DNA from: Clostridia bacterium
GTDB lineage: Bacteria > Bacillota > Clostridia > UMGS1883
NCBI GenBank assembly: GCA_045546275.1
Contig: JAZQCM010000042.1
Location: 3,864-67,863, forward strand
Direction of reading: 5' to 3'
Length of the DNA: 64,000 nt
Positions 2,277 to 61,713 of the stretch are shown piece by piece. The stretch's first letter is position 1. Each line of letters starts with the position of its first letter. Made by a program: the position numbers and the translations under genes. The notes under the pieces are model-generated. The model was not told the DNA's origin. It ran no database searches and saw nothing but the letters and a program-made list of their open reading frames with translations.

Positions 2277-2290
2277 TTCAGTAATAAATC

Positions 2291-2327
2291 AAGGGTTGCA
2301 GTAATGCAACCCTTGCATTTTCAATAA
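2291..2327 (+). terminator. Rho-independent terminator after the first SLH gene.
   Basis: Hairpin aagggttgcagtaatgcaacccttg followed by cattttc. Confidence 0.6.
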
Positions 2328-2388
2328 AACCAAACTTACAGTTTTGTTTATGTGTGTGGAGAAATAACTGAAAGGATGGATATTAATT

Positions 2389-7494: not shown

Positions 7495-7500
7495 GTATAA
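7495..7500 (+). promoter_or_regulatory. Extended -10 (tTGtATAAT) for the spoIIGA-sigE operon, with possible Spo0A-box-like elements upstream.
   Basis: tttTGtATAATgg sits immediately before the ORF. 0A-box-like sequences (TGTCGAA consensus) occur at about 7431 (TGTCAAT) and about 7466 (TaCGACA on the complementary strand). Confidence 0.35.
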
Positions 7501-8375: not shown

Positions 8376-8380
8376 ATTTT

Positions 8381-20756: not shown

Positions 20757-20816
20757 GGCTTAACAAAATGTTCATTTTTGCTTGGCAAAATTAATACATT
20801 AAATTGATATTCTTAA

Positions 20817-20843
20817 GGCGAGGGGAGTTGAACCCCTCGCCTT
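20817..20843 (+). terminator. Stem-loop after ispF.
   Basis: gcgaggggagttgaacccctcgcc, directly followed by RBS aaaggaggg of the next gene. Confidence 0.45.
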
Positions 20844-20863
20844 ATAAAAAGGAGGGAACCGGT

Positions 20864-33888: not shown

Positions 33889-35026
33889 TTCCTATGGGCT
33901 GCTCACAAAGTGACTTTAAGGTTATTGATAAATAATCGCCCATGTCAGCGGAATATATGTCTATCGTATCTACACTAAGACCCTTTTGTATAAGCTCGTT
34001 GTAAAAAACCGCTTTGTGGTTTTCAATAAGCTTTTCAATGTCTGTGTCCTTGTAGGTTACTGTTACTTCTCTGTATTCTTTTTTGTTGAAGGAAACAGGA
34101 AAAAACAGAAAATCCCTACTATAATCTATAATATCATATTCCGGGTATAAAATGCTACTGTTTATGAAAAGTTTTATGGGAAAATTTAAAAAATTTATGG
34201 TTAAATGTTCACATTTTTCTCCTGTTGGGGTGCGTATTTCTTCTTTTTTGTAAATATTCACTTCTTTTGTTTGCCACACAAGCCCGTAAACCTCACCTGT
34301 GGCATGAGTTGGGGCGGTTTCAGTTTCGGAAATTGTTTTTACCCCCTCGATTAAAAGTCCCCCTTTCAAAACCACATCTCCCTCTCTTACCCTTGCAGTG
34401 CCGCCTGTTGCAAGCACACGGGTAACAATTGCATCCTCAGATGAATACACATTGCAAAAATCCTTTTCGTCAAAAACCTTTGGGGGGAGAGTGCGGGGAG
34501 CGTATTTCACAATGGCGCTTGCGCCCTTAAGGTCAACCCACACCCACAAAAGGTCGTTGTTCCGGATTAAAAGCTGGTTTTTAACAAAGGACTGGTCAAT
34601 TGAAAATTTAAAAGCACCACGCTTTACGCCTAAAGCCGAAAGCTCTTCAAGGAGCCTTTTTTCCATCTGAACATCGCAGTCAACTATGTTAACATTCCAG
34701 ATTATACAGGTTGAAAAAAACAGCACCAAAGAAAGGAAAATGGGCAAAAAAAGTGCAATTTTCCTGTTTTTCAAGCTTTTCACAAGGGCAACAAAGCCTT
34801 TTTCCTCAATAACCTTCAGGCTTAGCCCCTCGGGAAGAGGGGAGGCTAAAAGATGCCTTGCCCCTTTACTGCTTACGGAAAAGTGAAGGATTGTTTCCTT
34901 TGGCTTTTCAATGTCGGAAATAAAAATGCCCTCTTCTTTTGCAATGTTTAAAATGCGCTCGGTGTACAAGCCTTCAGCCTGAAGAATTGTGTAGCCGAAA
35001 AGAAAGTTTAAAAGTTTAAGGTTCAT
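33839..35026 (-). CDS. yqfD: Sporulation protein YqfD (stage IV).
   Basis: It occupies the conserved yqfC-yqfD-phoH position. One TM segment and a YqfD-like N-terminus (LLNFLFGYTILQAEGLYTERILNI). Confidence 0.75.
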   Translation of the reverse strand: MNLKLLNFLFGYTILQAEGLYTERILNIAKEEGIFISDIEKPKETILHFSVSSKGARHLLASPLPEGLSLKVIEEKGFVALVKSLKNRKIALFLPIFLSLVLFFSTCIIWNVNIVDCDVQMEKRLLEELSALGVKRGAFKFSIDQSFVKNQLLIRNNDLLWVWVDLKGASAIVKYAPRTLPPKVFDEKDFCNVYSSEDAIVTRVLATGGTARVREGDVVLKGGLLIEGVKTISETETAPTHATGEVYGLVWQTKEVNIYKKEEIRTPTGEKCEHLTINFLNFPIKLFINSSILYPEYDIIDYSRDFLFFPVSFNKKEYREVTVTYKDTDIEKLIENHKAVFYNELIQKGLSVDTIDIYSADMGDYLSITLKSLCEQPIGIERRINFGENYSGTDN

Positions 35027-41794: not shown

Positions 41795-44700
41795 ATGAAA
41801 AAAGTTTTTAGTTTAATTATTGCGGTAATTATGGCACTTTCTATAGTTCCTGCAATGGCAGAGGAAGCTTCTTCAAGTGTTTTGTTAAATGGTGAAAAAG
41901 CTCCCTTTGAAATTTTAAACGGCTATGTGCCCGTACGAGCTTTTGCCGACAGCTTAGGCTTAACTGTAAAGTGGGACAACGACAACCGCTGTGTAGTGGC
42001 GAATGACGGCGGAACTGAGGTTATTGTACCCATAGGCAAAAAGTGGGTGCAGAGAGCAGGCTTAAAGCAGTCAATTGACAAGGAAAGCATTATTATTAAT
42101 GATTTGTCCTACCTGCCTCTTGACGCTTTAAAGGGCTTTAATGCAACCTATGGTGGCGATGAAAGCCTGGTTACAATTGAAAAGTCCGTTTTTGAAGGCA
42201 AGTATGTAAAGCTTATTCAAAACGGCAAGGCGCTTATGCCCAATGAAAGCGGCAGTATTGTTATGGAAATTGTTTCTGAAAACGACGCACAGGAATGGAA
42301 GTTTACTTCCCGCGGCAGTGGTGTGTACCGTTTTGAAAACAAGAGCACAAAAAAGGCAATTGACGTACCCAGCGACAGTAAAGATGCAGGCAAGGCGCTT
42401 ATTCAGTATTCCTTCACAGGTGGCGGAAACCAGAACTATGTGCCCGTACGAAACAGTGATGGTACATATTTAATCCAGTGCTACAACTCAAAGCTTTTTA
42501 TGACAGTTGGCGAGGATAACACAGTCACCCAGGAAGAATTAACAGGTAACGATAACCAGAAGTTTATTTTAGAGGTTGCAGGCGTAGGCGAAGTAACGAG
42601 TGATACTATTGCTCCCGATACCGAAAAAGACCCCTATGACGGTAAGTTTGTAACGGTTGACGGCGAAATTTACCGTGTTATCTTAGTGGGCGATGAATAT
42701 GAAATAACAAACAAAAAAACAGGCGAAAAAGCCGAAATTGATTTAGAAAATGCATCTGTTGCAACACTTAACGATGTAGATTACGGCGAAAGCAAGTTTG
42801 TAGGCGGTAAGTTTATCACTCTTACAATGAACGGCAAAAACTTGATTGTTGACGAAGATACAAACGAAATTGCTCTTTCCGATAAAACAGATGAAGTTGC
42901 ACAGTGGGAAGCTGTTGCAGTAGGCAGTACAGCATTCACGCTTGTCAACAAAAAAACAGGTAAGGCAATTGACGTGCCCAACGAAAGCAAGGAAGCGGGA
43001 ATTAAGCTTTCCCAGTACACATCAAACAAAAAGAACCACCAGATTTACTCCTTTGAAAAAGCAGATGGTGGATATAAGCTTAAAAACAAAAACTCCGAAA
43101 TGTTCCTTACAATTAAGGATGGTATTGCATACCAGGAAGAGGCTGGTGACAAAAACCAGGTATTCACCTATGAAATCGTAGGCGAAAGCAATGCGAAAAT
43201 GGTTGCAATCACAGCAACACCCTTTGTATTAAAGGGCGATGAAAAAGTAACTAACGTAAAACTCCAGTGGAACGAGGTTATCGGTGCAACAAAATACGAC
43301 ATTTATAAATCCGTTGATGATGGTGAATATGTTCTTTTCGACGCATTAACAGGCTTTACTGTTGACGATTACGATCTGGAAATGGGCAAGAGCTACACAT
43401 ACCGTGTGTATGCATCGGATAATAATGGGCTTATAGGCTATGCGGAAACAGAGCAATTCACACCCTACGAAATGCCTCTTGACATGAAGAGCACAACAAA
43501 CCTTGAACCTTCCGGTATGAGCACACCCGGTGGCGGAATGAAAGATGCCAGCGGCACATACTACCGCTTCAGCCAGACTGGAAGAAAAGACGGCGGTAAA
43601 GGCTTTGGTCAGGTAACCATGAGCACTTCAACTGATGGCGTTACATACACAGACCCTGTTATCATCATGACAGTTGACGACATTTTAGCCCATGAAACCT
43701 GTAAGGACATAAAGGACATCCGCTTTGAAAGCGTAAACTTCAAGTACAACCCCAAGGCTAATAACTTTGGCTTTATAGCTCATGCAGAGCCCGGTAGCGG
43801 TGGCTATGACTTTGCAAGAATTTCTATTGCAACCTACACTCCCGGGGACGAAAAAATGGTGTTCCACGGCTGTGTTCGCCCCGGTGGCGATGATATTCGT
43901 GACCTTAACACCTTTATTGACGATGACGGCACAGGCTACATTATGGGCGCAACTCATGGCAATGCAGACCTTGGAATTTATCGCTTGAAGGAAGACTGGT
44001 CAGGTGTTGAAAAACGAATTGCTCTTTTAAATCCCGGAAAATGGAGAGAGCTTCCCAACATTTTAAAGGTTGACAATTACTATTACCTCTTCACATCAGG
44101 CTGTGCAGGCTGGTATCCCACACCCGGTATGTACAACTCCGCTACTAACATGGAAGGCCCCTGGAGCGATTTGAGAAACGTTGGTAACCTTACAACCTTC
44201 TCCTCTCAGTCAGGCTACGGCTTCTACCTTAAAAAGGACAGCGAAAACTACATGATGAACTCCTACCGCTGGATGGGCAACTGGAAGGATGCAACACTCA
44301 AAACAACACAGTCGCTCCGTTTCCCCATTAAGGTGAGCGAAGGTTATGCATTCTACGACTATTTTGAAGAACTGCTTTACAACTGGGAGGAAGATGTTGT
44401 AGTGCCCGTACAGCGTGGCAGAATACTTTCCCAGAACCGTCCCACAAGCTACGGAAAGAATGCAAACGACGGTAATTACAAGTCCCAGTGGAGTGTTGAC
44501 ACAACCTGGCCCTACACTTGGGAGGTTGACTTAGGACAAACATACAACGTAAACCAGGTGCAGATTTCATGGCTTATCCGCATAGGCAGTGAGCCTTACT
44601 ACAACTACATTATTGAAGGCAGTGAAGACGGCGTTAACTACACAAAGCTGGTGGATAAGAGTAGTGGCTACACTGATTACGGCTTTACTGTAGACAACTG

Positions 44701-44809
44701 CATGGGCAAGGCAAGATATGTACGAGTAACTGTAAATAACGCAAAGCCCAGAAGCGGTGAAAATAATTATCCCTCAACCTTCTACGAAATTAAGGTGATG
44801 GGCAGATAA
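41795..44809 (+). CDS. Secreted multi-domain carbohydrate-active protein. Domain order: signal peptide, Cu-amine-oxidase-like stalk, two ricin-B (CBM13-like) lectin domains, FN3, a GH43-like 5-bladed beta-propeller, and an F5/8 type C (CBM32-like) domain.
   Basis: VLLNGEKAPFEILNGYVPVRAFADSLGLTV (stalk domain). QxW beta-trefoil motifs (AQEWKF, NQKFILE, AQWEAVA, NQVFTYEI). FN3 (VKLQWNEVIGATKYDIYKS...YTYRVYA). GH43-like FIDDDGTGYIM and EGPW. C-terminal discoidin (NYKSQWSVDTTWPYTWEVDLGQTYNVNQVQISW...ARYVRVTV). Confidence 0.7.
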   Translation: MKKVFSLIIAVIMALSIVPAMAEEASSSVLLNGEKAPFEILNGYVPVRAFADSLGLTVKWDNDNRCVVANDGGTEVIVPIGKKWVQRAGLKQSIDKESIIINDLSYLPLDALKGFNATYGGDESLVTIEKSVFEGKYVKLIQNGKALMPNESGSIVMEIVSENDAQEWKFTSRGSGVYRFENKSTKKAIDVPSDSKDAGKALIQYSFTGGGNQNYVPVRNSDGTYLIQCYNSKLFMTVGEDNTVTQEELTGNDNQKFILEVAGVGEVTSDTIAPDTEKDPYDGKFVTVDGEIYRVILVGDEYEITNKKTGEKAEIDLENASVATLNDVDYGESKFVGGKFITLTMNGKNLIVDEDTNEIALSDKTDEVAQWEAVAVGSTAFTLVNKKTGKAIDVPNESKEAGIKLSQYTSNKKNHQIYSFEKADGGYKLKNKNSEMFLTIKDGIAYQEEAGDKNQVFTYEIVGESNAKMVAITATPFVLKGDEKVTNVKLQWNEVIGATKYDIYKSVDDGEYVLFDALTGFTVDDYDLEMGKSYTYRVYASDNNGLIGYAETEQFTPYEMPLDMKSTTNLEPSGMSTPGGGMKDASGTYYRFSQTGRKDGGKGFGQVTMSTSTDGVTYTDPVIIMTVDDILAHETCKDIKDIRFESVNFKYNPKANNFGFIAHAEPGSGGYDFARISIATYTPGDEKMVFHGCVRPGGDDIRDLNTFIDDDGTGYIMGATHGNADLGIYRLKEDWSGVEKRIALLNPGKWRELPNILKVDNYYYLFTSGCAGWYPTPGMYNSATNMEGPWSDLRNVGNLTTFSSQSGYGFYLKKDSENYMMNSYRWMGNWKDATLKTTQSLRFPIKVSEGYAFYDYFEELLYNWEEDVVVPVQRGRILSQNRPTSYGKNANDGNYKSQWSVDTTWPYTWEVDLGQTYNVNQVQISWLIRIGSEPYYNYIIEGSEDGVNYTKLVDKSSGYTDYGFTVDNCMGKARYVRVTVNNAKPRSGENNYPSTFYEIKVMGR

Positions 44810-47616: not shown

Positions 47617-47625
47617 TAAAAAGAG

Positions 47626-47660
47626 TAGTTTTTAACTGCTCTTTTTTTGTGTGAGAGGCA
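47626..47660 (+). terminator. Rho-independent terminator.
   Basis: aaaagagtagtttttaactgctcttttttt. Confidence 0.7.
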
Positions 47661-47691
47661 TCAAAAATAGTAGAAAAACGTTGAAAATACT

Positions 47692-47720
47692 ATGTATGTA
47701 TGATAAAATAACTATATATT
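47692..47720 (+). promoter_or_regulatory. Sigma-A promoter heading the kinase-ferredoxin-hydS-PP2C-hydrogenase operon.
   Basis: TTGAAA-17 nt-TGaTAAAAT. No further promoter-sized gaps occur until the terminator at 53303. Confidence 0.5.
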
Positions 47721-47742
47721 GATTTTTAAAGGAGAGTCGTCA

Positions 47743-48489
47743 ATGAAACTGGAAAAAGTGATTGCGGTAAGAAATAATAAAACAATTTACCAAGACGGAA
47801 ATTTGAAGATAAAAGTGTTTGACAGCAGCTACAACAAGACGGTGGTTCTGAACGAAGCTCTTAACCAGGCAAGAATTGAAGAAACAGGTCTTAACATTCC
47901 CAAAATTTTTTCTGTTGAACAGATTGAGGGTAAGTGGGCTATTGTTTCGGAATATATTGCAGGTAAGACTCTTGCACAATTGATTGATGAAAACCCTGAA
48001 AAAGAAGACGAATACCTTGAGCTTATGGTGAATTTGCATATTGAAGTTATTTCCAAGCCCTGCAGTATCATGAACCGACTTCATGACAAGCTGACAGAAA
48101 AAATTATGGAAAGTGACCTTGATGCAATTACACGCTACAATTTTTGCAGAAAAATTATTGAAATGCCTACTCGTACAAAAATATGTCACGGAGACTTTAC
48201 GCCTTCCAACATTACTGTGGCCGACGATGGAAAGGTGTATATTATCGACTGGTCCAATGCAGCCCAGGGCAACGCTTCGGCAGACGTTGTGAGAACCTGC
48301 TTGCTGTTAAGACTTTCCGGCAAAGAGGAAATGGCAAATAAATATTTTAATATGTACTGTGAAAAGAATGGTGCAGACAAAAATTATGCTAAGCAGTGGT
48401 TCCCGATTATTGCGGCGGCATTAAGCACCGATGCAAAGCAGGAAGATAAAGAAAAACTTTTGAACTGGATTAAAAATACCGATTTTTAA
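47743..48489 (+). CDS. APH/choline-kinase-fold phosphotransferase (PF01636-like).
   Basis: Brenner motif ICHGDFTPSNITV, followed by IIDWSNA. Start at MKLEKVIAV, with RBS aaaggagag upstream. Confidence 0.75.
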   Translation: MKLEKVIAVRNNKTIYQDGNLKIKVFDSSYNKTVVLNEALNQARIEETGLNIPKIFSVEQIEGKWAIVSEYIAGKTLAQLIDENPEKEDEYLELMVNLHIEVISKPCSIMNRLHDKLTEKIMESDLDAITRYNFCRKIIEMPTRTKICHGDFTPSNITVADDGKVYIIDWSNAAQGNASADVVRTCLLLRLSGKEEMANKYFNMYCEKNGADKNYAKQWFPIIAAALSTDAKQEDKEKLLNWIKNTDF

Positions 48490-48505
48490 TGAGAGGAGAT
48501 TTAAA

Positions 48506-48745
48506 ATGAAAATAACTGTGTGCATAGGAAGCTCGTGCCATGTTAAAGGCTCAAAGAGTGTGGTGGAAGAGCTGCAGAGACTCATTGGTGAAAATAATGT
48601 GGGCAATAAGGTTGAGCTTGGCGGAACATTTTGTTTGGGAAAGTGCCAGGACGGAGTTTGTGTTGAGGTTGAAAAAGAAATTTTTTCAGTTACTAAAGAA
48701 ACCGTAGAGGAATTTTTCCGAAAAGAGGTTTTGAATAAATTATGA
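48506..48745 (+). CDS. Thioredoxin-like [2Fe-2S] ferredoxin (paralog 1).
   Basis: VCIGSSCHVKGS...GGTFCLGKCQDG carries the four Cys pattern of Trx-like 2Fe ferredoxins (NuoE/HndA family). Confidence 0.7.
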   Translation: MKITVCIGSSCHVKGSKSVVEELQRLIGENNVGNKVELGGTFCLGKCQDGVCVEVEKEIFSVTKETVEEFFRKEVLNKL

Positions 48746-48987
48746 TTATTCAGATTTGCGTAGGAAGCTCTTGTCACCTCAAAGGGTCGTATGAGCTTGT
48801 TGAAAAGTTTAAAAACGCCATTGAAGCACATGACTTAGAAGCAGAAATCACCCTTGCAGGCAGTTTTTGCACAGGAAAATGCAACCGTGAAGGCGTGACG
48901 GTTTTGATTGATGATGAAATTTTTACAGGATTAACCCCTGATGGATTTAAGGAGTTTTTTAAAGAAAATGTATTAGACAAAATCTGA
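48742..48987 (+). CDS. Thioredoxin-like [2Fe-2S] ferredoxin (paralog 2).
   Basis: ICVGSSCHLKGS...AGSFCTGKCNREG. The start overlaps the stop of paralog 1 (ATGA). Confidence 0.7.
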   Translation: MIIQICVGSSCHLKGSYELVEKFKNAIEAHDLEAEITLAGSFCTGKCNREGVTVLIDDEIFTGLTPDGFKEFFKENVLDKI

Positions 48988-49004
48988 AGAAGGGAAGACA
49001 GTAT

Positions 49005-50681
49005 ATGCCAAAGTGCATGATATCCAAAAAAAGTGATTGTAAAAATTGCTATAAATGTATACGTAATTGCCCGATTAAAGCAATTCGTTTTTCGGGCAAC
49101 CAGGCACAGATAATCGGAAACGAGTGCATTCTTTGCGGTCGTTGCTACACAGTTTGCCCCCAGAATGCAAAAGAGGTTGTAAGTGAGGTTGAAAAGGCAA
49201 AGGTGCTTATTGCATCCGGCGATGAGGTTTATGTAAGCCTGGCGCCCTCTTTTATTACAAAGTTTGACAATGCGGGCATTGAGTCAATGGAAGAAGCCCT
49301 TAAAAAGCTTGGCTTTACAGGCTGTGAGGAAACTGCAATAGGTGCCACAATTGTAAAAAATGAATACGAAAAAATGCTTTCGACAGGCGATAGAAATATT
49401 GTTATATCCTCCTGTTGTCACAGCATAAATCTTCTTATACAGAAGTATTTTCCTAAGGCGCTTACATATCTTGCAGACGTGTTAAGCCCCATGCTGGCAC
49501 ACGGTGCCGATATTAAAAAACGCCACGAAAACGCAAAGGTTGTATTTGTTGGTCCTTGTATTGCAAAAAAGGATGAAGCTGAACATTACGAAGGCTTTGT
49601 AGATGCAGTGCTTACCTTTGAAGAATTGGAAAACTGGTTTAAAGAAGAAGGTATTGTGCCCGACAAGAATGTTATATCCTGTGAAAAATCAAGAGCAAGG
49701 TTTTTCCCTGTTACAGGCGGTATTCTTAAAACAATGGCGTGCAATGAAGAAAAGTACGAATACATTGCCCTTGACGGCATTGAAAACTGCATGGAAGTAC
49801 TCCGCGAAATTGAAGAAGGCAGAATAAATAACTGCTTTATTGAAATGTCGGCTTGTGTAGGTGGCTGTGTGAACGGTCCTGCTATGGGTAAAAAGGAGTA
49901 TTCGCCTGTTATCGATTTTATAGCGGTGAAAAATTTTGCAGGCGCAGAAGACTATGATGTTAATCAGCCTGACAGCTTCGATTTAAGAAAAATTTTCGAT
50001 TTTATAGAAAGAAGGTCACAAGAGCCTAATGATACTGAGGTTGAGGCTGTCCTTCGTCAAATGGGCAAGTTCAAGTTGGGCGATGAATTGAACTGCGGAC
50101 TTTGCGGCTACAACACCTGCCGTGACAAGGCAAAGGCTATTTGTCAGGGCAAGGCGGAAATAAGCATGTGCCTTCCGTTTTTGAAGGATAAAGCCGAAAG
50201 CTTTTCAGACACAATTGTTAAAAACACACCCAATGGTCTTATTGCACTTAATGAAAGCTTAGAGGTACAGCAAATAAACGAAGCTGCACAAAAAATGATG
50301 AATTTAAGATATGCATCGGATATTTTGGGTGAGCCTGTGGTGAGAATTCTTGACCCTAAGGACTTTGTTGATGTTTTAAATTCAGGCAGAGATATACGAA
50401 ACAAGAGAGTTTATCTTGCCGAGTACAAACGCTATGCTGACGAAACTATTGTGTATGACAGAGATTCAAGAATGTTAGTTGCAATACTTCGTGACGTTAC
50501 CGATGAAGAAACCGAAAGGGAAAAGAAAGAGTCTATCAGCCGACAGACCGTAGAGGTTGCAGATAAGGTTGTTGAAAAGCAGATGAGAATTGTTCAGGAA
50601 ATCGCATCGCTCCTTGGTGAAACAGCCGCCGAAACAAAAATTGCACTGTCAAAGTTAAAGGAGTCGATTGCTGATGAATGA
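49005..50681 (+). CDS. hydS: Putative sensory [FeFe]-hydrogenase (group C, HydS/HfsB-like). Domain order: a 2x[4Fe-4S] ferredoxin domain, the H-cluster domain, a Cys4 cluster and a PAS domain.
   Basis: CKNCYKCIRNCP and CILCGRCYTVCP. H-cluster motifs L1 SSCCHS (canonical TSCCP), L2 GPCIAKKDE, L3 EMSACVGGCVNGP. C-terminal CGLCGYNTCRDKAKAICQGK...C. PAS-like C-terminus (NTPNGLIALNESLEVQQINEAAQKMMN). Confidence 0.85.
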   Translation: MPKCMISKKSDCKNCYKCIRNCPIKAIRFSGNQAQIIGNECILCGRCYTVCPQNAKEVVSEVEKAKVLIASGDEVYVSLAPSFITKFDNAGIESMEEALKKLGFTGCEETAIGATIVKNEYEKMLSTGDRNIVISSCCHSINLLIQKYFPKALTYLADVLSPMLAHGADIKKRHENAKVVFVGPCIAKKDEAEHYEGFVDAVLTFEELENWFKEEGIVPDKNVISCEKSRARFFPVTGGILKTMACNEEKYEYIALDGIENCMEVLREIEEGRINNCFIEMSACVGGCVNGPAMGKKEYSPVIDFIAVKNFAGAEDYDVNQPDSFDLRKIFDFIERRSQEPNDTEVEAVLRQMGKFKLGDELNCGLCGYNTCRDKAKAICQGKAEISMCLPFLKDKAESFSDTIVKNTPNGLIALNESLEVQQINEAAQKMMNLRYASDILGEPVVRILDPKDFVDVLNSGRDIRNKRVYLAEYKRYADETIVYDRDSRMLVAILRDVTDEETEREKKESISRQTVEVADKVVEKQMRIVQEIASLLGETAAETKIALSKLKESIADE

Positions 50682-51846
50682 TCTTAGTGCTGAAATCGGT
50701 TACAAAAGCATAAACCATTACGGTGAAGAGCTGTGCGGAGACCATGTGGACATAATTGAGCAGGACGAAAACTCCACAGTTATAGTTTTGGCTGACGGCT
50801 TGGGTAGTGGCGTTAAAGCCAGCATCCTTTCCACATTGACATCAAAAATAATCTCAACAATGATGGCTGCAGGATTGGGAATAGAAGAATGTGTTAAAAC
50901 CATTGCTGCAACCTTACCGGTGTGCTCAGTCCGCGGTGTGGCTTACTCAACCTTTACCATCATACATCTTATTGACAGGGAAACTGCCGACATTATACAG
51001 TACGACAATCCCCAGGTTATCATTCTTCGAAACGGCAAAAATTACGACTATCCCAAAACCGAAATGAATATTGACGGCAAAAAAATATTCCGTTCAAGCA
51101 TTAAGTTGTGTGAGGATGATTTGATTATTGCAATGAGCGACGGATGTCCTCATGCGGGCATAGGAATGGCGTACAATTTTGGTTGGAAAAGAGAAGAAAT
51201 CATCGATTTCATGGAAATGATGAGCACCTGCGGATATACTGCAAAAAATTTATCCACCATTCTGGTGGATGAGTGCAACAAGCTCTACAACAATAAGCCC
51301 GGTGATGATACCACTGCGTGTGTTGTGAGAATAAGACGCCGTGAGCCTATGAATTTGTTGTTTGGTCCGCCATATAACCGTGACGACTGCAACCGTATGA
51401 TGGCTTTGTTTTTTTCAAAGGAAGGCAAGCACATTGTATGCGGCGGTACAACCAGTTCAATTGTTGGCAAGTACCTGGGCAAGCCTGTTAGGGCAAGCTT
51501 GAATTTTGAAAATTCCGATGTTCCTCCGATTGCAGAAATTGAAGGTGTGGACCTTGTAACTGAAGGCGTTATAACCATTAACAAGGTTGTTGAATATGCG
51601 AAGGACTATATCGGAGAAAACCGATTGTATGAAAAATGGAACTTCAAGCGTGATGGTGCGGCGCTTATATCCAGGCTTCTTTTTGAAGAGGCAACGGATA
51701 TAAATTTCTACGTGGGCAGAGCAATCAATCCTGCACACCAGAACCCCGATTTGCCAATAAACTTCAACATTAAAATGAATCTGGTTGAAGAATTGAGCAG
51801 TTGCCTTAAACAAATGGGCAAAAGGATAAAAGTGAGTTATTTCTAA
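50668..51846 (+). CDS. SpoIIE/PP2C-family serine phosphatase with a C-terminal ~190-aa domain of unknown function.
   Basis: GEELCGDHVDIIEQDENSTVIVLADGLGSGVKASI...MSDGCPHAG (PPM metal-binding Asp/Gly motifs). It overlaps the hydS stop. The C-terminal half (aa ~210-392) was not assigned to any domain. Confidence 0.8.
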   Translation: MLMNDLSAEIGYKSINHYGEELCGDHVDIIEQDENSTVIVLADGLGSGVKASILSTLTSKIISTMMAAGLGIEECVKTIAATLPVCSVRGVAYSTFTIIHLIDRETADIIQYDNPQVIILRNGKNYDYPKTEMNIDGKKIFRSSIKLCEDDLIIAMSDGCPHAGIGMAYNFGWKREEIIDFMEMMSTCGYTAKNLSTILVDECNKLYNNKPGDDTTACVVRIRRREPMNLLFGPPYNRDDCNRMMALFFSKEGKHIVCGGTTSSIVGKYLGKPVRASLNFENSDVPPIAEIEGVDLVTEGVITINKVVEYAKDYIGENRLYEKWNFKRDGAALISRLLFEEATDINFYVGRAINPAHQNPDLPINFNIKMNLVEELSSCLKQMGKRIKVSYF

Positions 51847-51858
51847 GGAGTATAATAT

Positions 51859-53301
51859 ATGAGAAAATTTGATACAAAGGTACAGCATCTTAAATATGAG
51901 GTGTTAAGGGAGGTTGCCCGTCAGGCGTGGGACGACACGCTTTTGGAAAACTACCTTGAAATACCCAAAATTATTGTGCCCGGCGAAGAACCCACAATGC
52001 GTTGCTGTATTAATAAAGAAAGAGCAATATTGGCAGAAAGAGTTAAGATGGCAATGGGCGGAACACGTGAAAACCCCAACAATATTGAGGTTTTGCCAAT
52101 GGCGTGCGACAAATGCCCTGCATCAGGCTATGAGGTTATAGCAGACAGCTGTCGTAACTGTCTTGCTCATAGCTGCGAAGAATCCTGTAAATTCGGTGCA
52201 ATATATTTTGACCACGACCACCGTGCGCACATTGACAAGGAAAAGTGCAAAAACTGCGGTCAGTGCGCACAAAACTGCTCTTTCTCCGCTATTGTGAAAA
52301 GGGAACGCCCCTGCATGAAGGCGTGCAAGGTTAAGGCTATCAGTGCTGAGGGCGGTAAGAGTGCATCAATTGATAACAGTAAATGTATTCAGTGCGGTGC
52401 ATGTGTTTACAAGTGCCCCTTCGGTGCTATTACCGACAAGAGCTATATTTTGAATGTTATTGATATACTGAGAAAAGGCAAGGAGAAAAACTACAGGGTT
52501 TATGCTGTTGTTGCGCCTGCAATCTACAGCCAGTTTAAGTATGCAAAGCTTGGTCAGGTGGTGTCGGGGCTAAAGGAATTAGGCTTCCACACTGTGGTAG
52601 AAGCGGCATTGGGCGGTGATATGGTAGCTTTGAAGGAAAGTAAGGAGCTTAGTGAAAAAGGCTTTTTAACAACCTCCTGTTGCCCTGCATTTGTGGCGTA
52701 TATAAAAAGTCAGGTGCCCGACATGGTGGAATATGTTTCACATAACTATTCTCCCATGGTGGAAATGGCGAAGTTTATTAAAGAAACAGACAAGGATGCA
52801 AAGGTTGTGTTTATTGGTCCTTGTACTGCGAAAAAGGGCGAAGCAAAGCTCGAAAAAAGCCAGCCTCATATAGATGAGGTGCTCACCTTTGAAGAATTGC
52901 AGGCACTTTTCGATAGCCGTGACATTGAACTTGAAAAGCTTTCTGAGGATGTTTTGAACAACGCATCCTATTACGGCAGAATTTTTGCCCGTAGTGGTGG
53001 CGTGGCAGAAGCTGCTGCACAGGCTTTAAAAGAACAGGGCATTGAATTTGATGCAAAGCCTCTTGTTTGTAACGGTATTGAAGAATGTATGAAAGCACTA
53101 TTGGTTGCCTCCAAAAAGTTAAAGGCAGGACAAATGCCCGAATATAACTTTATCGAAGGTATGGCTTGCGTGGGTGGATGCATTAACGGTGCAGGCTGTC
53201 TTACACATAGCGAGATGAAAAACAAAATGGATGTTGATAAGTACGGCAAAGAAGCTATGGAAAAAACCATTAAGGATGCAGTTGACGCTGTAACAATGTA
53301 A
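51859..53301 (+). CDS. [FeFe]-hydrogenase catalytic subunit (group B/HfsD-like) with an N-terminal accessory domain and multiple [4Fe-4S] clusters.
   Basis: Four Cys clusters (CDKCPASGY...CRNCLAHSCEESC, CKNCGQCAQNC, CIQCGACVYKCP). H-cluster motifs TSCCPAF, GPCTAKKGE and EGMACVGGCINGAG. Confidence 0.85.
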   Translation: MRKFDTKVQHLKYEVLREVARQAWDDTLLENYLEIPKIIVPGEEPTMRCCINKERAILAERVKMAMGGTRENPNNIEVLPMACDKCPASGYEVIADSCRNCLAHSCEESCKFGAIYFDHDHRAHIDKEKCKNCGQCAQNCSFSAIVKRERPCMKACKVKAISAEGGKSASIDNSKCIQCGACVYKCPFGAITDKSYILNVIDILRKGKEKNYRVYAVVAPAIYSQFKYAKLGQVVSGLKELGFHTVVEAALGGDMVALKESKELSEKGFLTTSCCPAFVAYIKSQVPDMVEYVSHNYSPMVEMAKFIKETDKDAKVVFIGPCTAKKGEAKLEKSQPHIDEVLTFEELQALFDSRDIELEKLSEDVLNNASYYGRIFARSGGVAEAAAQALKEQGIEFDAKPLVCNGIEECMKALLVASKKLKAGQMPEYNFIEGMACVGGCINGAGCLTHSEMKNKMDVDKYGKEAMEKTIKDAVDAVTM

Positions 53302-53302
53302 A

Positions 53303-53338
53303 AAAGTGGTGTTGCTATTGCAACACCACTTTTTGTTT
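53303..53338. terminator. Bidirectional terminator ending the hydrogenase operon.
   Basis: aaaaagtggtgttgctattgcaacaccactttttg. Confidence 0.75.
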
Positions 53339-53957
53339 ATCTTATAAAGTTTGTTCTTGCACCGGAATCGGGGGTGGGGTGGGGAATATTGTTCGCCTTG
53401 CCCAATTCAATGCACTTTAAAAGCCATGCCATGTTTTTGCCCAAATTACGCATGGTCTGCATGCCTTCCTCGTCCTTTAAAACATCCTCGGGGGTGGAGC
53501 CGTGAACCATGTTCCAGTAAGAGGATGAAACAACGGGCATGTTTGAAATGGTAAGGTGCTTACTAAGCTGGTCAAGGGTAGCCGAAGTACCGCCACGACG
53601 AGCCGATGCAATGCAGGCACCTAACTTATACCTCAAATCCTTTCCGCCTGCATAGAAAAGGCGGTCCATAAAGCTTGTTATTGCACCTGATGCGGAAGCG
53701 TAGTGTACAGGTGAGCCGAAAACAAAGCCGTCAAATTCACAAAGACGGGGAATGATTTTGTTCACAGCGTCGTTGTCGGTAACGCATTTGCCCATTTTCG
53801 AGCAATAGCCGCAACCCATACAACCCTTTGTGGTGTCGCCAACGTAAAGAACTTCTGTTTCAATACCTTCGTTGTTCAAAACATCGCCAACTGCTTTAAG
53901 GGCGGTGTATGTACAGCCTGTTTTGTGGGGACTGCCGTTAATAAGTAATACTTTCAT
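53337..53957 (-). CDS. Flavodoxin-like / iron-sulfur flavoprotein (NADPH-dependent FMN reductase fold with a Cys cluster).
   Basis: MKVLLINGSPHKTGCTYT...CMGCGYCSKMGKCV. Confidence 0.8.
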   Translation of the reverse strand: MKVLLINGSPHKTGCTYTALKAVGDVLNNEGIETEVLYVGDTTKGCMGCGYCSKMGKCVTDNDAVNKIIPRLCEFDGFVFGSPVHYASASGAITSFMDRLFYAGGKDLRYKLGACIASARRGGTSATLDQLSKHLTISNMPVVSSSYWNMVHGSTPEDVLKDEEGMQTMRNLGKNMAWLLKCIELGKANNIPHPTPDSGARTNFIR

Positions 53958-56419: not shown

Positions 56420-58825
56420 TTATTCTGCAGCAGTTAAAGTAAATACCTGGTTACCTGTGCCTTTTTCTTCCTGTGTAACTGTATCGTCTTCATTCACTGT
56501 AAGGTAAAGGTTACTGTGCACTGCCTTGAACATTACACCATTTTCAACCTCTTCCTTGACAAACATCTGGTTTTCAGCACCTGTAGCACTCCAAAGAATT
56601 GCTGCCTTGCCTGCCTCTGTGGAAAGGTCCAGAATGTCAATAAGTGTACCTTCCTTAGTATAAACAAGTGTGCAAATGCCTTCGCCCATGTCCTTAACCT
56701 TCCATGCGGCTTCTTCATCAACAGCTTGTACAAACAAGTAGTTTGCACTCTTATCAACTGCGCCAAGGTATTTTTCAGTGCCGTTCACCTTAATTGTGTA
56801 GTCAAGGTTACTTGTGTTCTTTTCAATAGGTTCAAGAGTAAATACTGTGCCTTCGCCTTCAATACCCGAAACAAGGTTATCGCCCTTAACTTCAATGGAA
56901 AGTGAATATCTTTCGCTTTCGAATACGTAGCCGCCGTCTTTCTCGTAAACTGCAAACTGTTCATTTATTGCCCATGTGCCACCATACTGGTTAATTGTCT
57001 TTGTGGGAAGACCTGAGTCATCAAGCTGAAGTGAAGAGCCCGAATGCTTGGGAAAGAAACGAATAGTGTCGGCTGTTTTTTCAATAGCGAAAAGCTGAGA
57101 AGCATTGCCTTCTTCGTAATCGGAAAGGATTACCGGAACTTCGTTGTCTAACGATGCATCTGTAACTGTCCAAACCTTGCCTGTTGCCTTGTCCTTCACT
57201 ACATAGTAGTTGGAGTCGTCAATTTCGCTTGCAACGCTGCCTTCAGTTTTCTTGGAAAGGATTTCTTCAATATCTGTAATGCACTTTTCGTACTTTTCAT
57301 AATCCTTGAAGTATTCCTTGTCTGCACGGTAAAGCATACCGCGGAGCACGTTTGTACGGTTGGGATAAATTTCTTCAAGGTGCTCAAAAGCATCTGTGTC
57401 ACGGCTCATGAAGAAGAGCTTGTTAAATTCAGCCAAGTCTTCAGCCTGGTTGGATGCGCCATAGCCGGAAATCGGAATAGCGTCAAGAGATTCAGCGTAG
57501 CTCCACACGTTGTTATCGGGGAGAACATTGCTGTCTAAAATGTGGCCAAGCTCGTGACAAAGTGTGCTTGTAATCTGCTGAGAAGTGGAGGGTTCGTAGT
57601 TAAGACGAATCCAGATTGCATTACCGCCACCATTAAAGCTGTTTGCACCGTCGCCTGCCTTCCAGTAGAGCCAATGCACATACTGACGGATTGCATAAGG
57701 TGTTCTTGCAATAGCTTCAATTGAACGTTCAACCATGGGAACGTCTTCTTCGTTACTTACAAAGGTGAACTTGTGTACCTGACCTTCGCTGTCGCCTTCC
57801 ATTTCTACTTCGTAAAGCCAGCAGGGGCATTTGTGACCACGCCAGATATCAAAAGCCTCGTCGTAGGTTTTACTAACAATTTTATACTTTGCAACATGGT
57901 CGGAGGCAAGTGTGCCGCCTACCTGATAGGAAGCTGTGTATGTAAGGCAATCACGGATAAGGCTTGCCTGTTCTTCGGGGGGAAGATTCATGTAATCTGC
58001 TGCTGCAAACTTGTTTTCGGCATTTGCCATAGCCTGCTGTGTAATCCAGATTTTGTCTGTAAAATATTCGTCAGCAGCTCTCTGGTATCTTTCGTCCAAA
58101 AGCTTGTAGCCGGGTGTGGAAGAAAGGGAAGAAACAATAGAGTCGGAAACATATTCCAATTTCCACATCGAATAGTCGCTTTCCTTGTCGGCAGACTGAA
58201 TAACAGCACCGTCTTTTTCAGCTAAAACAAGGTCACAATGCTGGGGAGTGATTGTATAGTAGCCGTTACCAACTGCTGTAAGCTTCATTTTCTGCTGAAT
58301 GTTTGAGTAGTAGGTGTATTGAATAAGTTGAACACCTTCCTCTGTTTTTGCATCGGGAACATCAAGAGAACGGCCCGAAAGCATGTTCACAAAATAACCG
58401 TATTCGTCGTCAATTTTTGCATAGCGGAAAACCTGGTCGGAATTGTAGTAATCGTAAGGTTCTGTTACGATTAATGCAAGGTTTTCCTTGTTGTAATCTT
58501 CAGCTACGATTACATTGCCTGTAGCCTTGTTAACAAGGCGGTAGTACTTATTAAAGGGGTTAGAGGCAACCAGAACAGTCTGTGTTTCCTGGTTCCAGCC
58601 TACAACTTTGCCGTTTTCCTCGTAATACTTACGAACGGCGATTTCGCCTTCTAAAGAGGAGTCAATGTCTGCCGCATCGGCAAAGGTTGTCCAGTCTTTA
58701 AGATAAGCCTGGTCTGTGACGGTTGCACCGTCCAGAGTTACTGTTATCATTACACTTTCTGCAAGTGCGGAAACACTTGTAAGAAGAAGCATAAGACACA
58801 GTGCGAGTGAAATAATTTTTTTCAT
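56420..58825 (-). CDS. Secreted zinc metallopeptidase (HEXXH) flanked by ricin-B lectin domains.
   Basis: Signal peptide MKKIISLALCLMLLLTSVSALA. HExxH motif CHELGHILD. Ricin-B QxW repeats near the N-terminus (SDQVFRY...YSMWKLEY) and at the C-terminus (AAWKV...NQMFVK...NQVFTL). Confidence 0.75.
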   Translation of the reverse strand: MKKIISLALCLMLLLTSVSALAESVMITVTLDGATVTDQAYLKDWTTFADAADIDSSLEGEIAVRKYYEENGKVVGWNQETQTVLVASNPFNKYYRLVNKATGNVIVAEDYNKENLALIVTEPYDYYNSDQVFRYAKIDDEYGYFVNMLSGRSLDVPDAKTEEGVQLIQYTYYSNIQQKMKLTAVGNGYYTITPQHCDLVLAEKDGAVIQSADKESDYSMWKLEYVSDSIVSSLSSTPGYKLLDERYQRAADEYFTDKIWITQQAMANAENKFAAADYMNLPPEEQASLIRDCLTYTASYQVGGTLASDHVAKYKIVSKTYDEAFDIWRGHKCPCWLYEVEMEGDSEGQVHKFTFVSNEEDVPMVERSIEAIARTPYAIRQYVHWLYWKAGDGANSFNGGGNAIWIRLNYEPSTSQQITSTLCHELGHILDSNVLPDNNVWSYAESLDAIPISGYGASNQAEDLAEFNKLFFMSRDTDAFEHLEEIYPNRTNVLRGMLYRADKEYFKDYEKYEKCITDIEEILSKKTEGSVASEIDDSNYYVVKDKATGKVWTVTDASLDNEVPVILSDYEEGNASQLFAIEKTADTIRFFPKHSGSSLQLDDSGLPTKTINQYGGTWAINEQFAVYEKDGGYVFESERYSLSIEVKGDNLVSGIEGEGTVFTLEPIEKNTSNLDYTIKVNGTEKYLGAVDKSANYLFVQAVDEEAAWKVKDMGEGICTLVYTKEGTLIDILDLSTEAGKAAILWSATGAENQMFVKEEVENGVMFKAVHSNLYLTVNEDDTVTQEEKGTGNQVFTLTAAE

Positions 58826-58863
58826 TTCATTCTTCCTTCCTTTACTTATTTATTCTAAAAAAT

Positions 58864-61713
58864 TTAGAAACATTTTAAGGTGCGGTACAGAACCGCTGCC
58901 GCCTCGGCACGTGTTGCGTGGTCCAAGGGCTTGAAAAGGTTCATTTCCTTACCTTCAAAAAGGTTAAGGTTTGTGCCCGTTTTCACCGCATCGTAGCTCC
59001 ATGAGCTTATCATGTGAGTGTCGTCGTAGCGAAGGGGCAAATCGTAAGGCATTGGGCCTTCCGCCAATTTATAGGCACGGGCAATTATTGTTGCCATTTG
59101 TTCACGGGTAATGTAGCCATTGGGGTCAAACTCTGTTTCGGATGTTCCTGTTATAATGCCTCGGCGGTAGGCAGCTTCAATGTAACCTGCCGCCCAGTAG
59201 CTTTCATCAACATCTTTGAAATTGCCGGAATAGGGCAACGAAACAAGTGAAAACGCACGTACAATCATTGTTGTAAATTCCGCTCTTGTAACCAAATGCT
59301 CAGGGTAAAACATTGTTTTTGTTTTGCCCGATATTACACCCTTTTCCGAAAGAGCTGCAACCATGTTTTCTGCCCAGTGGTCGGTAATGTCGTAGAAGGG
59401 GTGTTCTTTCACATTGTCAAGCTCAACAGGAGTCATTTCAGAAAGGGGAAGCTCGTCCTTTTCGTTCTGGTCAATATCCGATGCAATAAGCATTGGCAAC
59501 GAGGACAGGCTTTCACTAACAAGACCTGTGTAAGCGCAAATGGGGGTAACCTCAAAAATCACATACTGACCTGCCATATCGGGGGTGAACTCGAGATAAT
59601 TCTGGTTGGGAACACCAATCGGCTCGTAATGACCATCGTAGGTTGAAGAAATATACCAACGGGTTGAGCTTATGTCGGAATCAGGCTCATTTGTCATGTT
59701 GTTGATGTAGGTATAAGTGCCACGAAGGTATTCGCCATAGTCACCGCCTGAAATTGTAATTTCGGAAGCGGAAAGCTCTGCAGGGAAAATTTCAATATTA
59801 TCAATTATAAGACCAACCTCAGTTTCGCTTTCAATGTAGAGAGCAAGGCGGCCTGTTACGGTTTGGTCAACCATAAAGGGAATAAGTGTGTCTTCTGTGG
59901 GGTCGTATTGTGCAAAGGGCACATATTCGCCTGTGTAGGCGTCGGCAATAAGTGCAGTTACAATGCCCTCGCCAACCCCGGGCGATGCGGAATAAACATA
60001 GTATTCTCCGCCCAAAAGCTCCATGTAGGAGTTATTCATAACCATACATGATGGGTCAGGTGAATAAACATGTCCTGCTTTTTCACCGTTGTAATCAATT
60101 ATTGAGAAAACAGAACCATCGGAAGCGGTCCACCACTCATTTGCCTGCTTGATTTCAAAGCTTCCGTCACCAACAAGGTTGTCGCTGATTGAAATTTCAA
60201 GCTTTGAGGTTATGTTTTCGTAGGTTGCGGTGATAATGTAATTGCCAAGGTGGGCGTTGCTTTCAACAATTATTTCGCCATCTTCAAGGTACACTCCCTG
60301 GTTTGTGGGTGAAATTGAAAGATTAGGTTTATAGTTATCCATTGCATTACCCATCTGGTCAAGAACATAGGCAAAGCAAGGAAGAACGGTTGCCTCTGAG
60401 GGAACTGCAATGTTGCCGGGAGCATGAATTGAAACCGTTGTAGGTGCTTCATCCTCTATGGCTAAGTAAACGTTGTCAATGTAAATAGGTCTTTCTGACG
60501 GAGCGTACAAATTAAGGGTAAGGTCGTAAAGACCTGTGTCTTCAATGCAAAAGGCACTTGTAACCTGGTTCCAGTCTCCGCCAATGCCTGTAATGTTAAT
60601 TTCGGCGTAGCCTGACTGAGCAAATGAAAGGTTTGAAATGTATACTGAAGAAGAGGGAAACTCCTCGTCGCTTCTTACATCTGCTTTAAAAACGTACATT
60701 TCATCTTCCATCAAAAACAACTGGTCAGTGTAGCTTATGGTGGTGTATTTGCCATACATTCCGTCTGTGGAGGCGTAAAGCGAAAGAGAGCCGTCAGCAT
60801 AGGTAATTTCGTCCTCGCTTACCCATTTTTCCATGCCTTCTTCAAAGGATGCATCCGCCAGAAGATTTTTTGTGAGAAGTGCTGTAAATTCCGGATTTTT
60901 CACAGGAAGAGCCTCGGAAGAGGTAACCGAAATTGTAACCGTGGTATCGGGATTTGCAGTGGAATGAACTCTGACCATTCCCGATGCACCGTCAAACTCC
61001 ACACCTTCGGGAACATTGGTCATGGCAAAGTTATAGTCTTCCAAAAGAATATTAACAGGATTATCGTCGGTGTCGTAGGTAACAATGCTGTAACGGTAAT
61101 CTGTAAATCCACGGTCGGGAATGTACATGCTTTTAGGCCCTTCAATAACCGTATATTCGGGAACACGTGTTTCTGTTGTGATTGAAATATCGTCAATAAA
61201 GAAGCCCATGTCAATGTCACCGCCCGAAAGAGAAATGATGGGCTTACATTCAGCATCCTCCGTTGCCATAAATGAGGCTGTAACAAATGTAAAGCTGTCA
61301 CCGACAGAGTCAATATCAATAAAAAGTGCCTCGCCGTTACGACCAAGATATGCGCTGGCAGCTCCTTCTCTGGTGTCGGAAGCAAGAGGGTTTAACACAT
61401 ATGCCGAAAATGTGTAAACAACCCCCTCTTTAAGAGTTATTGTGTCGTTATATTCAAGAATGTGCCCAAAAACTGCAGTATCCTCTTCGCCAAAGGGGTT
61501 TGATATCTGCATGCCGTACTTGCCTTCGTAGGCACAGCCTTCGTCAAAAGTGCCGCCTGTCCACAAATCGTTTTCTGTTTCAAAGTTTTCAAAAAGAATC
61601 GCTTCCGATTCTTCCGCAAGGGAAACAACGGGCAAAAGTGACAAAACATATATTATAAACAATGTAATTGAAATAAGTTTATTTTTGTAAATCATTATAA
61701 TCTTCCTAAGCAT
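58864..61713 (-). CDS. Large SLH-anchored surface protein with CBM-like beta-sandwich and Ig-like domains.
   Basis: Signal/TM N-terminus. C-terminal SLH triad (FYDITDHWAENMVAAL, FKDVDESYWAAGYIEAAY, ITREQMATIIARAY, ATRAEAAAVLYRTL). Confidence 0.85.
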   Translation of the reverse strand: MLRKIIMIYKNKLISITLFIIYVLSLLPVVSLAEESEAILFENFETENDLWTGGTFDEGCAYEGKYGMQISNPFGEEDTAVFGHILEYNDTITLKEGVVYTFSAYVLNPLASDTREGAASAYLGRNGEALFIDIDSVGDSFTFVTASFMATEDAECKPIISLSGGDIDMGFFIDDISITTETRVPEYTVIEGPKSMYIPDRGFTDYRYSIVTYDTDDNPVNILLEDYNFAMTNVPEGVEFDGASGMVRVHSTANPDTTVTISVTSSEALPVKNPEFTALLTKNLLADASFEEGMEKWVSEDEITYADGSLSLYASTDGMYGKYTTISYTDQLFLMEDEMYVFKADVRSDEEFPSSSVYISNLSFAQSGYAEINITGIGGDWNQVTSAFCIEDTGLYDLTLNLYAPSERPIYIDNVYLAIEDEAPTTVSIHAPGNIAVPSEATVLPCFAYVLDQMGNAMDNYKPNLSISPTNQGVYLEDGEIIVESNAHLGNYIITATYENITSKLEISISDNLVGDGSFEIKQANEWWTASDGSVFSIIDYNGEKAGHVYSPDPSCMVMNNSYMELLGGEYYVYSASPGVGEGIVTALIADAYTGEYVPFAQYDPTEDTLIPFMVDQTVTGRLALYIESETEVGLIIDNIEIFPAELSASEITISGGDYGEYLRGTYTYINNMTNEPDSDISSTRWYISSTYDGHYEPIGVPNQNYLEFTPDMAGQYVIFEVTPICAYTGLVSESLSSLPMLIASDIDQNEKDELPLSEMTPVELDNVKEHPFYDITDHWAENMVAALSEKGVISGKTKTMFYPEHLVTRAEFTTMIVRAFSLVSLPYSGNFKDVDESYWAAGYIEAAYRRGIITGTSETEFDPNGYITREQMATIIARAYKLAEGPMPYDLPLRYDDTHMISSWSYDAVKTGTNLNLFEGKEMNLFKPLDHATRAEAAAVLYRTLKCF

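Follow-up and report, generated by a model that had tools for sequence, protein, structure and literature searches.

In the stretch of uncultured Clostridia DNA analyzed here (contig JAZQCM010000042.1, positions 3,864 to 67,863; 64,000 nt, hereafter the window), six genes on the forward strand form a real operon, with a conserved promoter ahead of them and a strong terminator behind, and encode a kinase, two minimal ferredoxins, a putative sensory [FeFe]-hydrogenase (HydS), a PP2C phosphatase, and a second [FeFe]-hydrogenase. Orthologues of the operon are the Ruminococcus hydS-hydA2 clusters, Thermoanaerobacterium hfs (compared through published descriptions only), and the clusters of HydDB group C3; that it belongs to this known hydS cluster type is near-certain. 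We consider it probable, at about 0.65, that the operon is a regulatory unit responding to H2 (or to H2/ferredoxin redox) and sharing a transcript with the ferredoxin-dependent hydrogenase under its control, the signalling steps within it being much less certain than the cluster membership. H2 partial pressure decides whether gut and rumen fermenters form acetate and H2 or reduced products such as ethanol and lactate, a choice on which methanogens in turn feed; sensory [FeFe]-hydrogenases are the presumed gauges of H2.

The genes and domains were defined by a listing of open reading frames together with hidden Markov model (HMM) scans against Pfam and NCBIfam, and are as follows.

47681-47709, plus strand: sigma-70-type promoter, with -35 TTGAAA at 47681-47686, a 17-nt spacer, and extended -10 TGaTAAAAT at 47701-47709
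47743-48489, plus strand: gene 1, kinase of the APH/choline-kinase fold, 248 amino acids, ATG at 47743, ribosome-binding site AAAGGAGAG at 47728-47736
48506-48745, plus strand: gene 2, minimal thioredoxin-like [2Fe-2S] ferredoxin 1, 79 amino acids, Cys6-x4-Cys11 ... Cys43-x3-Cys47
48742-48987, plus strand: gene 3, minimal thioredoxin-like [2Fe-2S] ferredoxin 2, 81 amino acids, with a 4-nt ATGA overlap with gene 2
49005-50681, plus strand: gene 4, HydS, group C (M2f) putative sensory [FeFe]-hydrogenase, 558 amino acids
50674-51846, plus strand: gene 5, SpoIIE-type PP2C phosphatase, 390 amino acids from the ATG start
50674-51345, plus strand: SpoIIE/RsbU-type PP2C domain of gene 5, residues 1-224
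51346-51846 including the stop codon (51346-51843 without it), plus strand: uncharacterised C-terminal domain (CTD) of gene 5, residues 225-390, 166 amino acids
51859-53301, plus strand: gene 6, group B (B1) monomeric ferredoxin-type [FeFe]-hydrogenase, HydA2/HfsD equivalent, 480 amino acids
53301-53334, plus strand: intrinsic terminator with a 15-bp stem, a 4-nt loop, and a T-run

An earlier interpretation of this DNA, made from its letters alone (the sequence-only reading), had proposed six co-oriented genes in this order and with these functions, and the open reading frames and HMM scans bear this out. It had also predicted that hydS runs into the start of the phosphatase gene. The start of gene 5 overlaps the hydS stop by 8 nt (ATGAATGA), with AAAGGAG lying 10 nt 5' of its ATG, and hydS is translationally coupled to the PP2C gene; the choice of this ATG is backed by the database homologues, every one of which is likewise 390 amino acids long. 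The remaining intergenic gaps of the operon measure 12-17 nt. The predicted promoter motif TTGAAA-17-TGaTAAAAT is present, although it lies 11 nt upstream of the position first given (47692-47720). It was read directly from the sequence and scores 10/12 plus the TG in a consensus scan, which returned 31 sites against a chance expectation of 22.6 +/- 4.9, a single match carrying no significance by itself. In the three closest related loci (L001-L003), however, both the -35 TTGAAA and the extended -10 TGnTAAAAT persist against a diverged spacer and diverged flanks. The terminator, first placed at 53303-53338, is the strongest among those in the 11 kb scanned; it is probably bidirectional, since it abuts the stop (53337) of a convergent flavin mononucleotide (FMN) reductase gene. 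With Rfam models at gathering thresholds, neither a riboswitch nor any other RNA element was found anywhere in the window, the operon's 5' leader included.

The gene order of the operon recurs in at least 160 loci of gut, rumen, and bioreactor sources. The comparison covered 160 related loci, 80 from species-level genomes and 80 from metagenomes; the two sets are given separately. The six-gene order recurs in 45/80 species-level genomes, far beyond chance, and most departures are loci cut at contig ends. HydS and PP2C are adjacent wherever both are on the contig, their matches abutting or overlapping by a few nt in nearly all loci. The group B hydrogenase gene adjoins the phosphatase gene in 54/56 genome loci and 30/39 metagenome loci whose downstream sequence is long enough, and the kinase lies directly upstream in 49 of 65 genome loci and 29 of 44 metagenome loci. 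Two ferredoxin genes, the typical state in the window's clade, are found in 60/65 genome loci, and a single one, typical of more distant relatives, in 31 of the 44 metagenome loci. Most relatives (among L006-L080 and L088-L167; e.g., L013, 3008-5707, and L068, 2444-3067) begin the cluster with rex and/or adhE immediately ahead of the kinase: adhE lies directly upstream of it in at least 53 of the 160 loci, rex stands at the cluster head in at least 31, and ldh occurs inside or beside the cluster in 11. Overall, HydS and PP2C with its CTD make up the constant core, usually preceded by one or two mini-ferredoxins, whereas rex, adhE, ldh, and the kinase vary from locus to locus as additions to it.

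The window and its four closest relatives (L001-L004) are without rex, adhE, and ldh and carry a ttcA-like gene at that position; this clade has lost the three genes and acquired its own promoter. In four genomes an L-lactate dehydrogenase gene (ldh) lies between the PP2C and group B hydrogenase genes (L033, 9861-10808; L045, 7208-8155; L062, 9861-10808; L079, 9854-10801), and several other loci have it beside the cluster. In the metagenome loci L090, L093, L135, L138, and L157, the genes after the HydS-PP2C pair encode a NuoE-like protein and a distant hydrogenase with 28-30% identity to gene 6 of the window, which we read as a HydABC-type set. As this set replaces the group B enzyme in some loci, the sensor unit pairs with different hydrogenases. 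Loci L023, L055, and L071 come from bins labelled Methanocorpusculum, Faecalibacterium prausnitzii, and Sphaerochaetaceae, yet their operon is of the Clostridia type, and these taxon labels are probably binning or labelling errors in public metagenome-assembled genomes (MAGs).

Median identity to the window proteins among the genome loci is 83.7% for the CTD, the highest of the seven operon segments compared, 78.0% for the PP2C domain, 68.7% for HydS, 68.3% for the group B hydrogenase, 63-67% for the ferredoxins, and 54% for the kinase. Within HydS, identity rises from 72% in the H-domain to 78% in the PAS domain, 87% in the Cys4 region, and 93% in the last 58 residues. Conservation is highest at the presumed signalling interface, comprising the HydS tail (93%), PP2C (84%), and the CTD (88%).

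Because the module has already been described (PMC5037454, PMC6776011, PMC5707799), the operon is not a discovery. HydDB group C3 is the "phosphatase-linked (putative)" class (PMC5037454), to which the window's HydS is assigned from gene adjacency, its gene adjoining and overlapping that of a Ser/Thr phosphatase. The closest described relatives are the hydS-hydA2 clusters of R. albus and R. flavefaciens (Zheng et al., 2014, as cited in other papers; PMC6776011), which have the same order of APH-type kinase, thioredoxin-like ferredoxin, HydS, PP2C, and hydrogenase, with a 558-amino-acid HydS, a 390-amino-acid SpoIIE-type PP2C bearing the same CTD, and a ferredoxin-type hydrogenase of about 475 amino acids. 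The PP2C of the window is 83% identical to the R. flavefaciens protein. The Ruminococcus clusters carry adhE at their head (and many relatives rex too), with a single ferredoxin gene, the order in R. flavefaciens being adhE, kinase, ferredoxin, hydS, PP2C, and hydrogenase. The window differs in having two ferredoxin genes, no adhE or rex in its 64 kb, and an operon promoter of its own after a ttcA-like gene. Thermoanaerobacterium hfsABCD shares the core, namely the PAS-containing [FeFe]-hydrogenase HfsB, the Ser phosphatase HfsC, and the ferredoxin-linked HfsD (PMC5707799, PMC11837493), but no kinase is described there, and HfsA is described as poorly alignable rather than as a thioredoxin-like ferredoxin.

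The locus therefore represents no new kind of system; what the 160-locus comparison adds is a sharper question of constant core versus variable additions. The sequence-only reading had held that the signalling output of such modules is not established experimentally, and the literature to 2026 agrees, the partners and signalling mechanism of sensory hydrogenases being still not known (PMC13104023, PMC13277313). A literature search on PP2C phosphatases with sensory hydrogenases returned unrelated PP2C papers only. As the locus comes from an uncultured MAG, the question is no more testable here than in cultivable relatives.

HydS has the ferredoxin/H-domain/Cys4/PAS architecture that the sequence-only reading had ascribed to it, with two [4Fe-4S] clusters at residues 8-55, the H-domain at 74-292, the Cys4 motif at 362-391, the PAS domain at about 400-500, and a tail helix at 501-558. 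The N-terminus matches Fer4_10, Fer4_21, and Fer4_7 at residues 5-55 and contains two CxxCxxCxxxC motifs; the H-domain matches Fe_hyd_lg_C (3.1e-52), and the Cys4 [4Fe-4S] motif matches PF04060 (1.9e-9). The HMM check that had been suggested for this protein detected both the H-domain and the PAS domain, the latter at 21.9 bits in the whole protein (cut-off 22.6) and above the cut-off, at 25.3 bits, only when the C-terminus was scanned alone. An atypical C-terminal Cys4 motif together with a PAS domain has been described in sensory hydrogenases (PMC13104023).

In alignment, SSCC(137,138)HS, GPC185, and EMSAC284VGGC288 of HydS correspond to the three H-cluster motifs of solved hydrogenases. The ligand cysteines of those enzymes have their counterparts in C138, C185, C284, and C288, so that all four H-cluster ligands are present. 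In the second sphere, M353 and M497 of CpI are replaced by Gly and Ser, and the equivalent of C299, the proton-transfer cysteine of CpI, is kept as Cys137. The L1 motif SSCCHS (49410-49427, residues 136-141), in which His takes the place of the usual Pro, is invariant in 12 homologues. The biochemically characterised group C sensor, T. maritima HydS, has the same architecture of two [4Fe-4S] clusters, H-domain, C-terminal [4Fe-4S], and PAS, and its G177 and S267 are likewise Gly and Ser at the M353 and M497 positions (PMC10055695). It has Ala131 at the C299 position, whereas the HydS of the window keeps Cys, with His rather than Pro after the CC.

The C-terminal predicted helix of HydS (50505-50678, residues 501-558) is about 93% identical among relatives compared with about 72% in the catalytic domain, which suggests a conserved protein-protein interface. 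HydS relatives among the matches listed are 535-561 amino acids long, and the best 150 CTD relatives (longest 427 amino acids) include no fused HydS-PP2C protein. An exact-sequence look-up for the HydS of the window returned no record.

The same features of HydS bear on the idea that the genes encode one multi-subunit catalytic "Hfs hydrogenase," in which both H-cluster proteins would turn over H2 and be wired together by the ferredoxins, with PP2C and the kinase as accessory or unrelated proteins. The complete H-cluster ligand set, the retained C299-equivalent Cys, and the two co-encoded ferredoxins are all compatible with such an enzyme, and the original description of the hfs operon presented it as the main hydrogenase, with HfsABC suggested to be active without HfsD (PMC13277313). 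We nevertheless regard this as very unlikely. The Gly and Ser substitutions for Met353 and Met497 match those of the low-activity T. maritima HydS (PMC10055695), the PAS domain and tail of HydS are more conserved than its H-domain, deletion of hfsB increases rather than lowers hydrogenase activity (PMC5707799), and expression of HfsD alone suffices for the phenotype (PMC11837493).

Under the regulatory interpretation that we favor, HydS would report H2, or the H2/ferredoxin redox balance. Binding of H2 would alter the redox or conformational state of HydS, and its PAS domain and tail helix, acting as a detached regulatory domain, would relay this change to PP2C, much as the PP2C is controlled by the PAS/coiled-coil region in RsbP and by the N-domain in RsbU. 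Between them, PP2C and the APH-fold kinase would determine how far a Ser/Thr target is phosphorylated, and this target would tune ferredoxin-dependent H2 production and the choice of fermentation end product (ethanol via AdhE, lactate via LDH). Candidate targets are Rex, which many relatives encode, and the operon's own proteins. The sequence-only reading had proposed an H2-responsive phospho-relay, and domains, synteny, the link to the fermentation genes adhE, rex, and ldh in relatives, and the literature on relatives support this. In R. albus, a cluster of ferredoxin-only hydrogenase, AdhE, sensory hydrogenase, and phosphatase is repressed 111-fold in co-culture with an H2 consumer, which keeps H2 low (PMC6776011). 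The genetics of hfs indicates a regulatory role affecting adhE and hydrogenase activity: deletion of hfsB raises both hydrogenase activity and adhE expression, with hfsC and hfsD required (PMC5707799, PMC11837493), and HfsD alone is the active ferredoxin hydrogenase (PMC11837493).

The phosphatase has the SpoIIE/RsbU-type fold with conserved metal-binding Asp residues and, by its domain and motifs, is catalytically intact. It shares the PP2C fold and these Asp residues with the SpoIIE/RsbU/RsbP phosphatases. In RsbP the PAS domain and helix are fused to PP2C, whereas in the window they sit on the separate, translationally coupled HydS; further differences are the APH fold of the kinase and the 166-residue CTD, an unrelated extra. 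Domain scans found no STAS, HATPase_c/GHKL, sigma-factor, or Hanks-kinase domain in the operon or its flanking genes, and, with no STAS protein or GHKL kinase nearby, the operon falls outside classical partner switching. The sequence-only reading had stated that no anti-sigma antagonist, transcription factor, or Hanks kinase is present. This holds for the operon here, but the part on transcription factors is limited to the clade, given the rex genes among the relatives.

The counterpart of the phosphatase would be the kinase, for which the APH fold proposed from sequence has HMM, structure-model, and motif support. It matches Pfam APH at 1.6e-11 (44.9 bits, above the cut-off) and RIO1 at 2.7e-9; its Pkinase score is 18.7 bits against a cut-off of 31.7, and therefore it is not a Hanks-type kinase. 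The AlphaFold2 (AF2) model (predicted local distance difference test score, pLDDT, 87.6) has its best Foldseek matches in the PDB to APH(3')-Ia/IIIa (E = 4e-9, template-modelling score 0.62-0.65). The protein has a bilobal fold with HxDxxxxN and a downstream metal-binding Asp, and the catalytic HGDFxPSN and IDW are invariant in 37 homologues.

Alternatively, this gene may encode an enzyme that phosphorylates a small molecule, either a metabolite or an antibiotic; it would then be no more than a passenger on the transcript, and its product no counterpart of PP2C. Its best structural and HMM matches are indeed to aminoglycoside, choline, and thiamine kinases, and it is the least conserved gene of the operon. 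On the other hand, wherever it is present its place is the same over a wide phylogenetic range, after adhE or the promoter and before the ferredoxin gene; it also matches the protein-kinase-like RIO1/Bud32 families, and Zheng et al. (2014), as cited in PMC5707799, label it a Ser/Thr protein kinase. We find this alternative unlikely on balance, though it deserves to be kept in view.

Several of these observations, together with others, weigh against the regulatory interpretation as a whole. The matches of the kinase to small-molecule kinases and its absence from 25-34% of loci do so for the kinase step, and in this as in all related systems both the control of PP2C by HydS and the protein-kinase role of the kinase are inferred. 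Retention of the C299 equivalent as Cys137 means that HydS could be more catalytic than a pure sensor. The C-terminal cluster of a group D sensor gave no response to H2 (PMC13104023). Domain scans found no target gene in the window, and the promoter is without a Rex operator: searches of 47617-47742 with two consensus patterns, tolerating as many as 3 mismatches, were negative, and their counts are at chance level.

The two mini-ferredoxins would most likely connect HydS, the group B enzyme, or both with the ferredoxin pool of the cell. Their matches to the PF01257 model are confined to its C-terminal half, which binds the cluster (3.4e-8 for ferredoxin 1, which also has NuoE/HoxE-like NCBIfam matches, and 1.1e-8 for ferredoxin 2), and both carry C6, C11, C43, and C47 (Cx4C...Cx3C), as expected of the two thioredoxin-like ferredoxins that had been predicted.

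The last gene, called HydB in the sequence-only reading, does encode a second hydrogenase, but the name is misleading, since in common use HydB is the NuoF-like subunit of HydABC; the gene corresponds to HydA2/HfsD. Its product scores 542.4 bits with TIGR04105 over residues 4-450 (curated cut-off 450) and 2.6e-58 with Fe_hyd_lg_C, and its TSCCP, GPC, and EGMACVGGC align with CpI. Group B [FeFe]-hydrogenases are reported as the main ferredoxin-dependent H2 producers in the gut (PMC12578642); in the passages searched, sensory hydrogenases come up only briefly. Like those enzymes, the hydrogenase of the window passes the TIGR04105 cut-off and carries the H-cluster motifs, but it sits under a dedicated sensory hydrogenase/phosphatase unit.

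The most conserved of the seven operon segments compared, the CTD of the phosphatase, is also the one that lacks annotation. It has no Pfam match at E < 10, NCBIfam models (E <= 0.01) cover only the PP2C part of the protein, and the best hit of a CTD profile among PDB sequences, a SIS-domain isomerase, is not significant (E 0.46). Its motifs are GPP, VCGGTT, PP, DLVTEG, DG, NPAH, and GK. An exhaustive search recovered 1077 cluster representatives (50% clustering) at E < 1e-3, most of them proteins of about 390 amino acids with the same PP2C fusion. The AF2 model falls below pLDDT 50 at residues 232-297, so that the fold of the first half is unreliable; the low confidence is due to a shallow alignment (at least 82% identity). 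In this model VCGGTT would form a Gly/Thr-rich loop after a beta-strand, with a geometry typical of phosphate-binding or phospho-acceptor sites.

The CTD occurs free-standing, with neither HydS nor a PP2C domain, in two of the loci, both times beside a mini-ferredoxin:

L084, 1525-2323: free-standing CTD
L086, 316-2018: free-standing CTD, also beside a kinase

The second of these may be a deletion relic, because it follows a fragment of adhE (iron-containing alcohol dehydrogenase). Two further candidates for a stand-alone CTD were rejected, P0384 being a full PP2C gene split by the gene caller and P0451 lying on a truncated contig.

These properties of the CTD raise the question of whether the phospho-switch is self-contained, the kinase and PP2C acting on the CTD, a mini-ferredoxin, or the group B hydrogenase, so that H2 production would be controlled post-translationally and no external transcription factor would be involved. 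The high conservation of the CTD, above that of both hydrogenases (68%), is consistent with this, as are the candidate phosphate-binding or phospho-acceptor geometry of its VCGGTT loop, the free-standing copies next to a mini-ferredoxin and, in one case, also a kinase, the lack of a target gene near the operon, and the rise in hydrogenase activity upon hfsB deletion, which occurred without polar effects (PMC5707799). However, the stand-alone cases number only two, a search of metagenomes that started from the stand-alone forms recovered fused forms only, and the CTD fold has neither a confident model nor a match. In addition, adhE transcript levels change in hfs mutants, implying a transcriptional output as well (PMC5707799). 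We therefore hold such a self-contained switch to be rather improbable. More specifically, and with equal reserve, we entertain the doubtful possibility that the CTD, the mini-ferredoxin(s), and the kinase constitute an unrecognised redox-and-phosphorylation switch fed by HydS, its substrate (the CTD, a ferredoxin, or the group B hydrogenase) lying inside the operon. If true, direct post-translational control of H2 production would be the answer to the "missing output" problem of phosphatase-linked sensory hydrogenases. The unannotated, highly conserved CTD and the HydS tail helix are the most useful by-products of the analysis and are concrete targets for interaction and phosphorylation experiments.

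Upstream of the operon lie a PP-loop (TtcA-like) gene and rplM-rpsI, and downstream the FMN reductase gene, a Na/alanine symporter, and a LysR regulator. Just 3' of the ttcA-like gene, at 47619-47649, an imperfect hairpin with a T-run was seen by eye (AAAAGAGTAG-TTTTTAA-CTGCTCTTTTTTT), at which the terminator scan was silent; it may be the terminator of that gene before the operon promoter. By tblastn, neither adhE nor rex nor ldh was found in the 64 kb of the window. Another fermentation-branch enzyme, a glycyl-radical enzyme of 797 amino acids resembling pyruvate formate-lyase, is encoded with its radical-SAM activase at 4083-7374 on the minus strand.

The nearest genomes to this uncultured member of the Clostridia are gut and rumen MAGs of Oscillospiraceae/Clostridia. 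A single sigma factor was found in the window, sigE (8291-9097), next to spoIIGA and about 40 kb from the operon. The presence of spoIIGA-sigE (7500-9097) and yqfD (33839-35026) marks the host as a spore-former, in which a genuine SpoIIE is to be expected elsewhere. Large secreted proteins with SLH, copper-amine-oxidase-N, ricin-lectin, GH43, CBM, and F5/8-type-C domains are encoded at 36-3624, 20804-23014, 41795-44809, and 56420-61713, and point to a plant-polysaccharide-degrading lifestyle.

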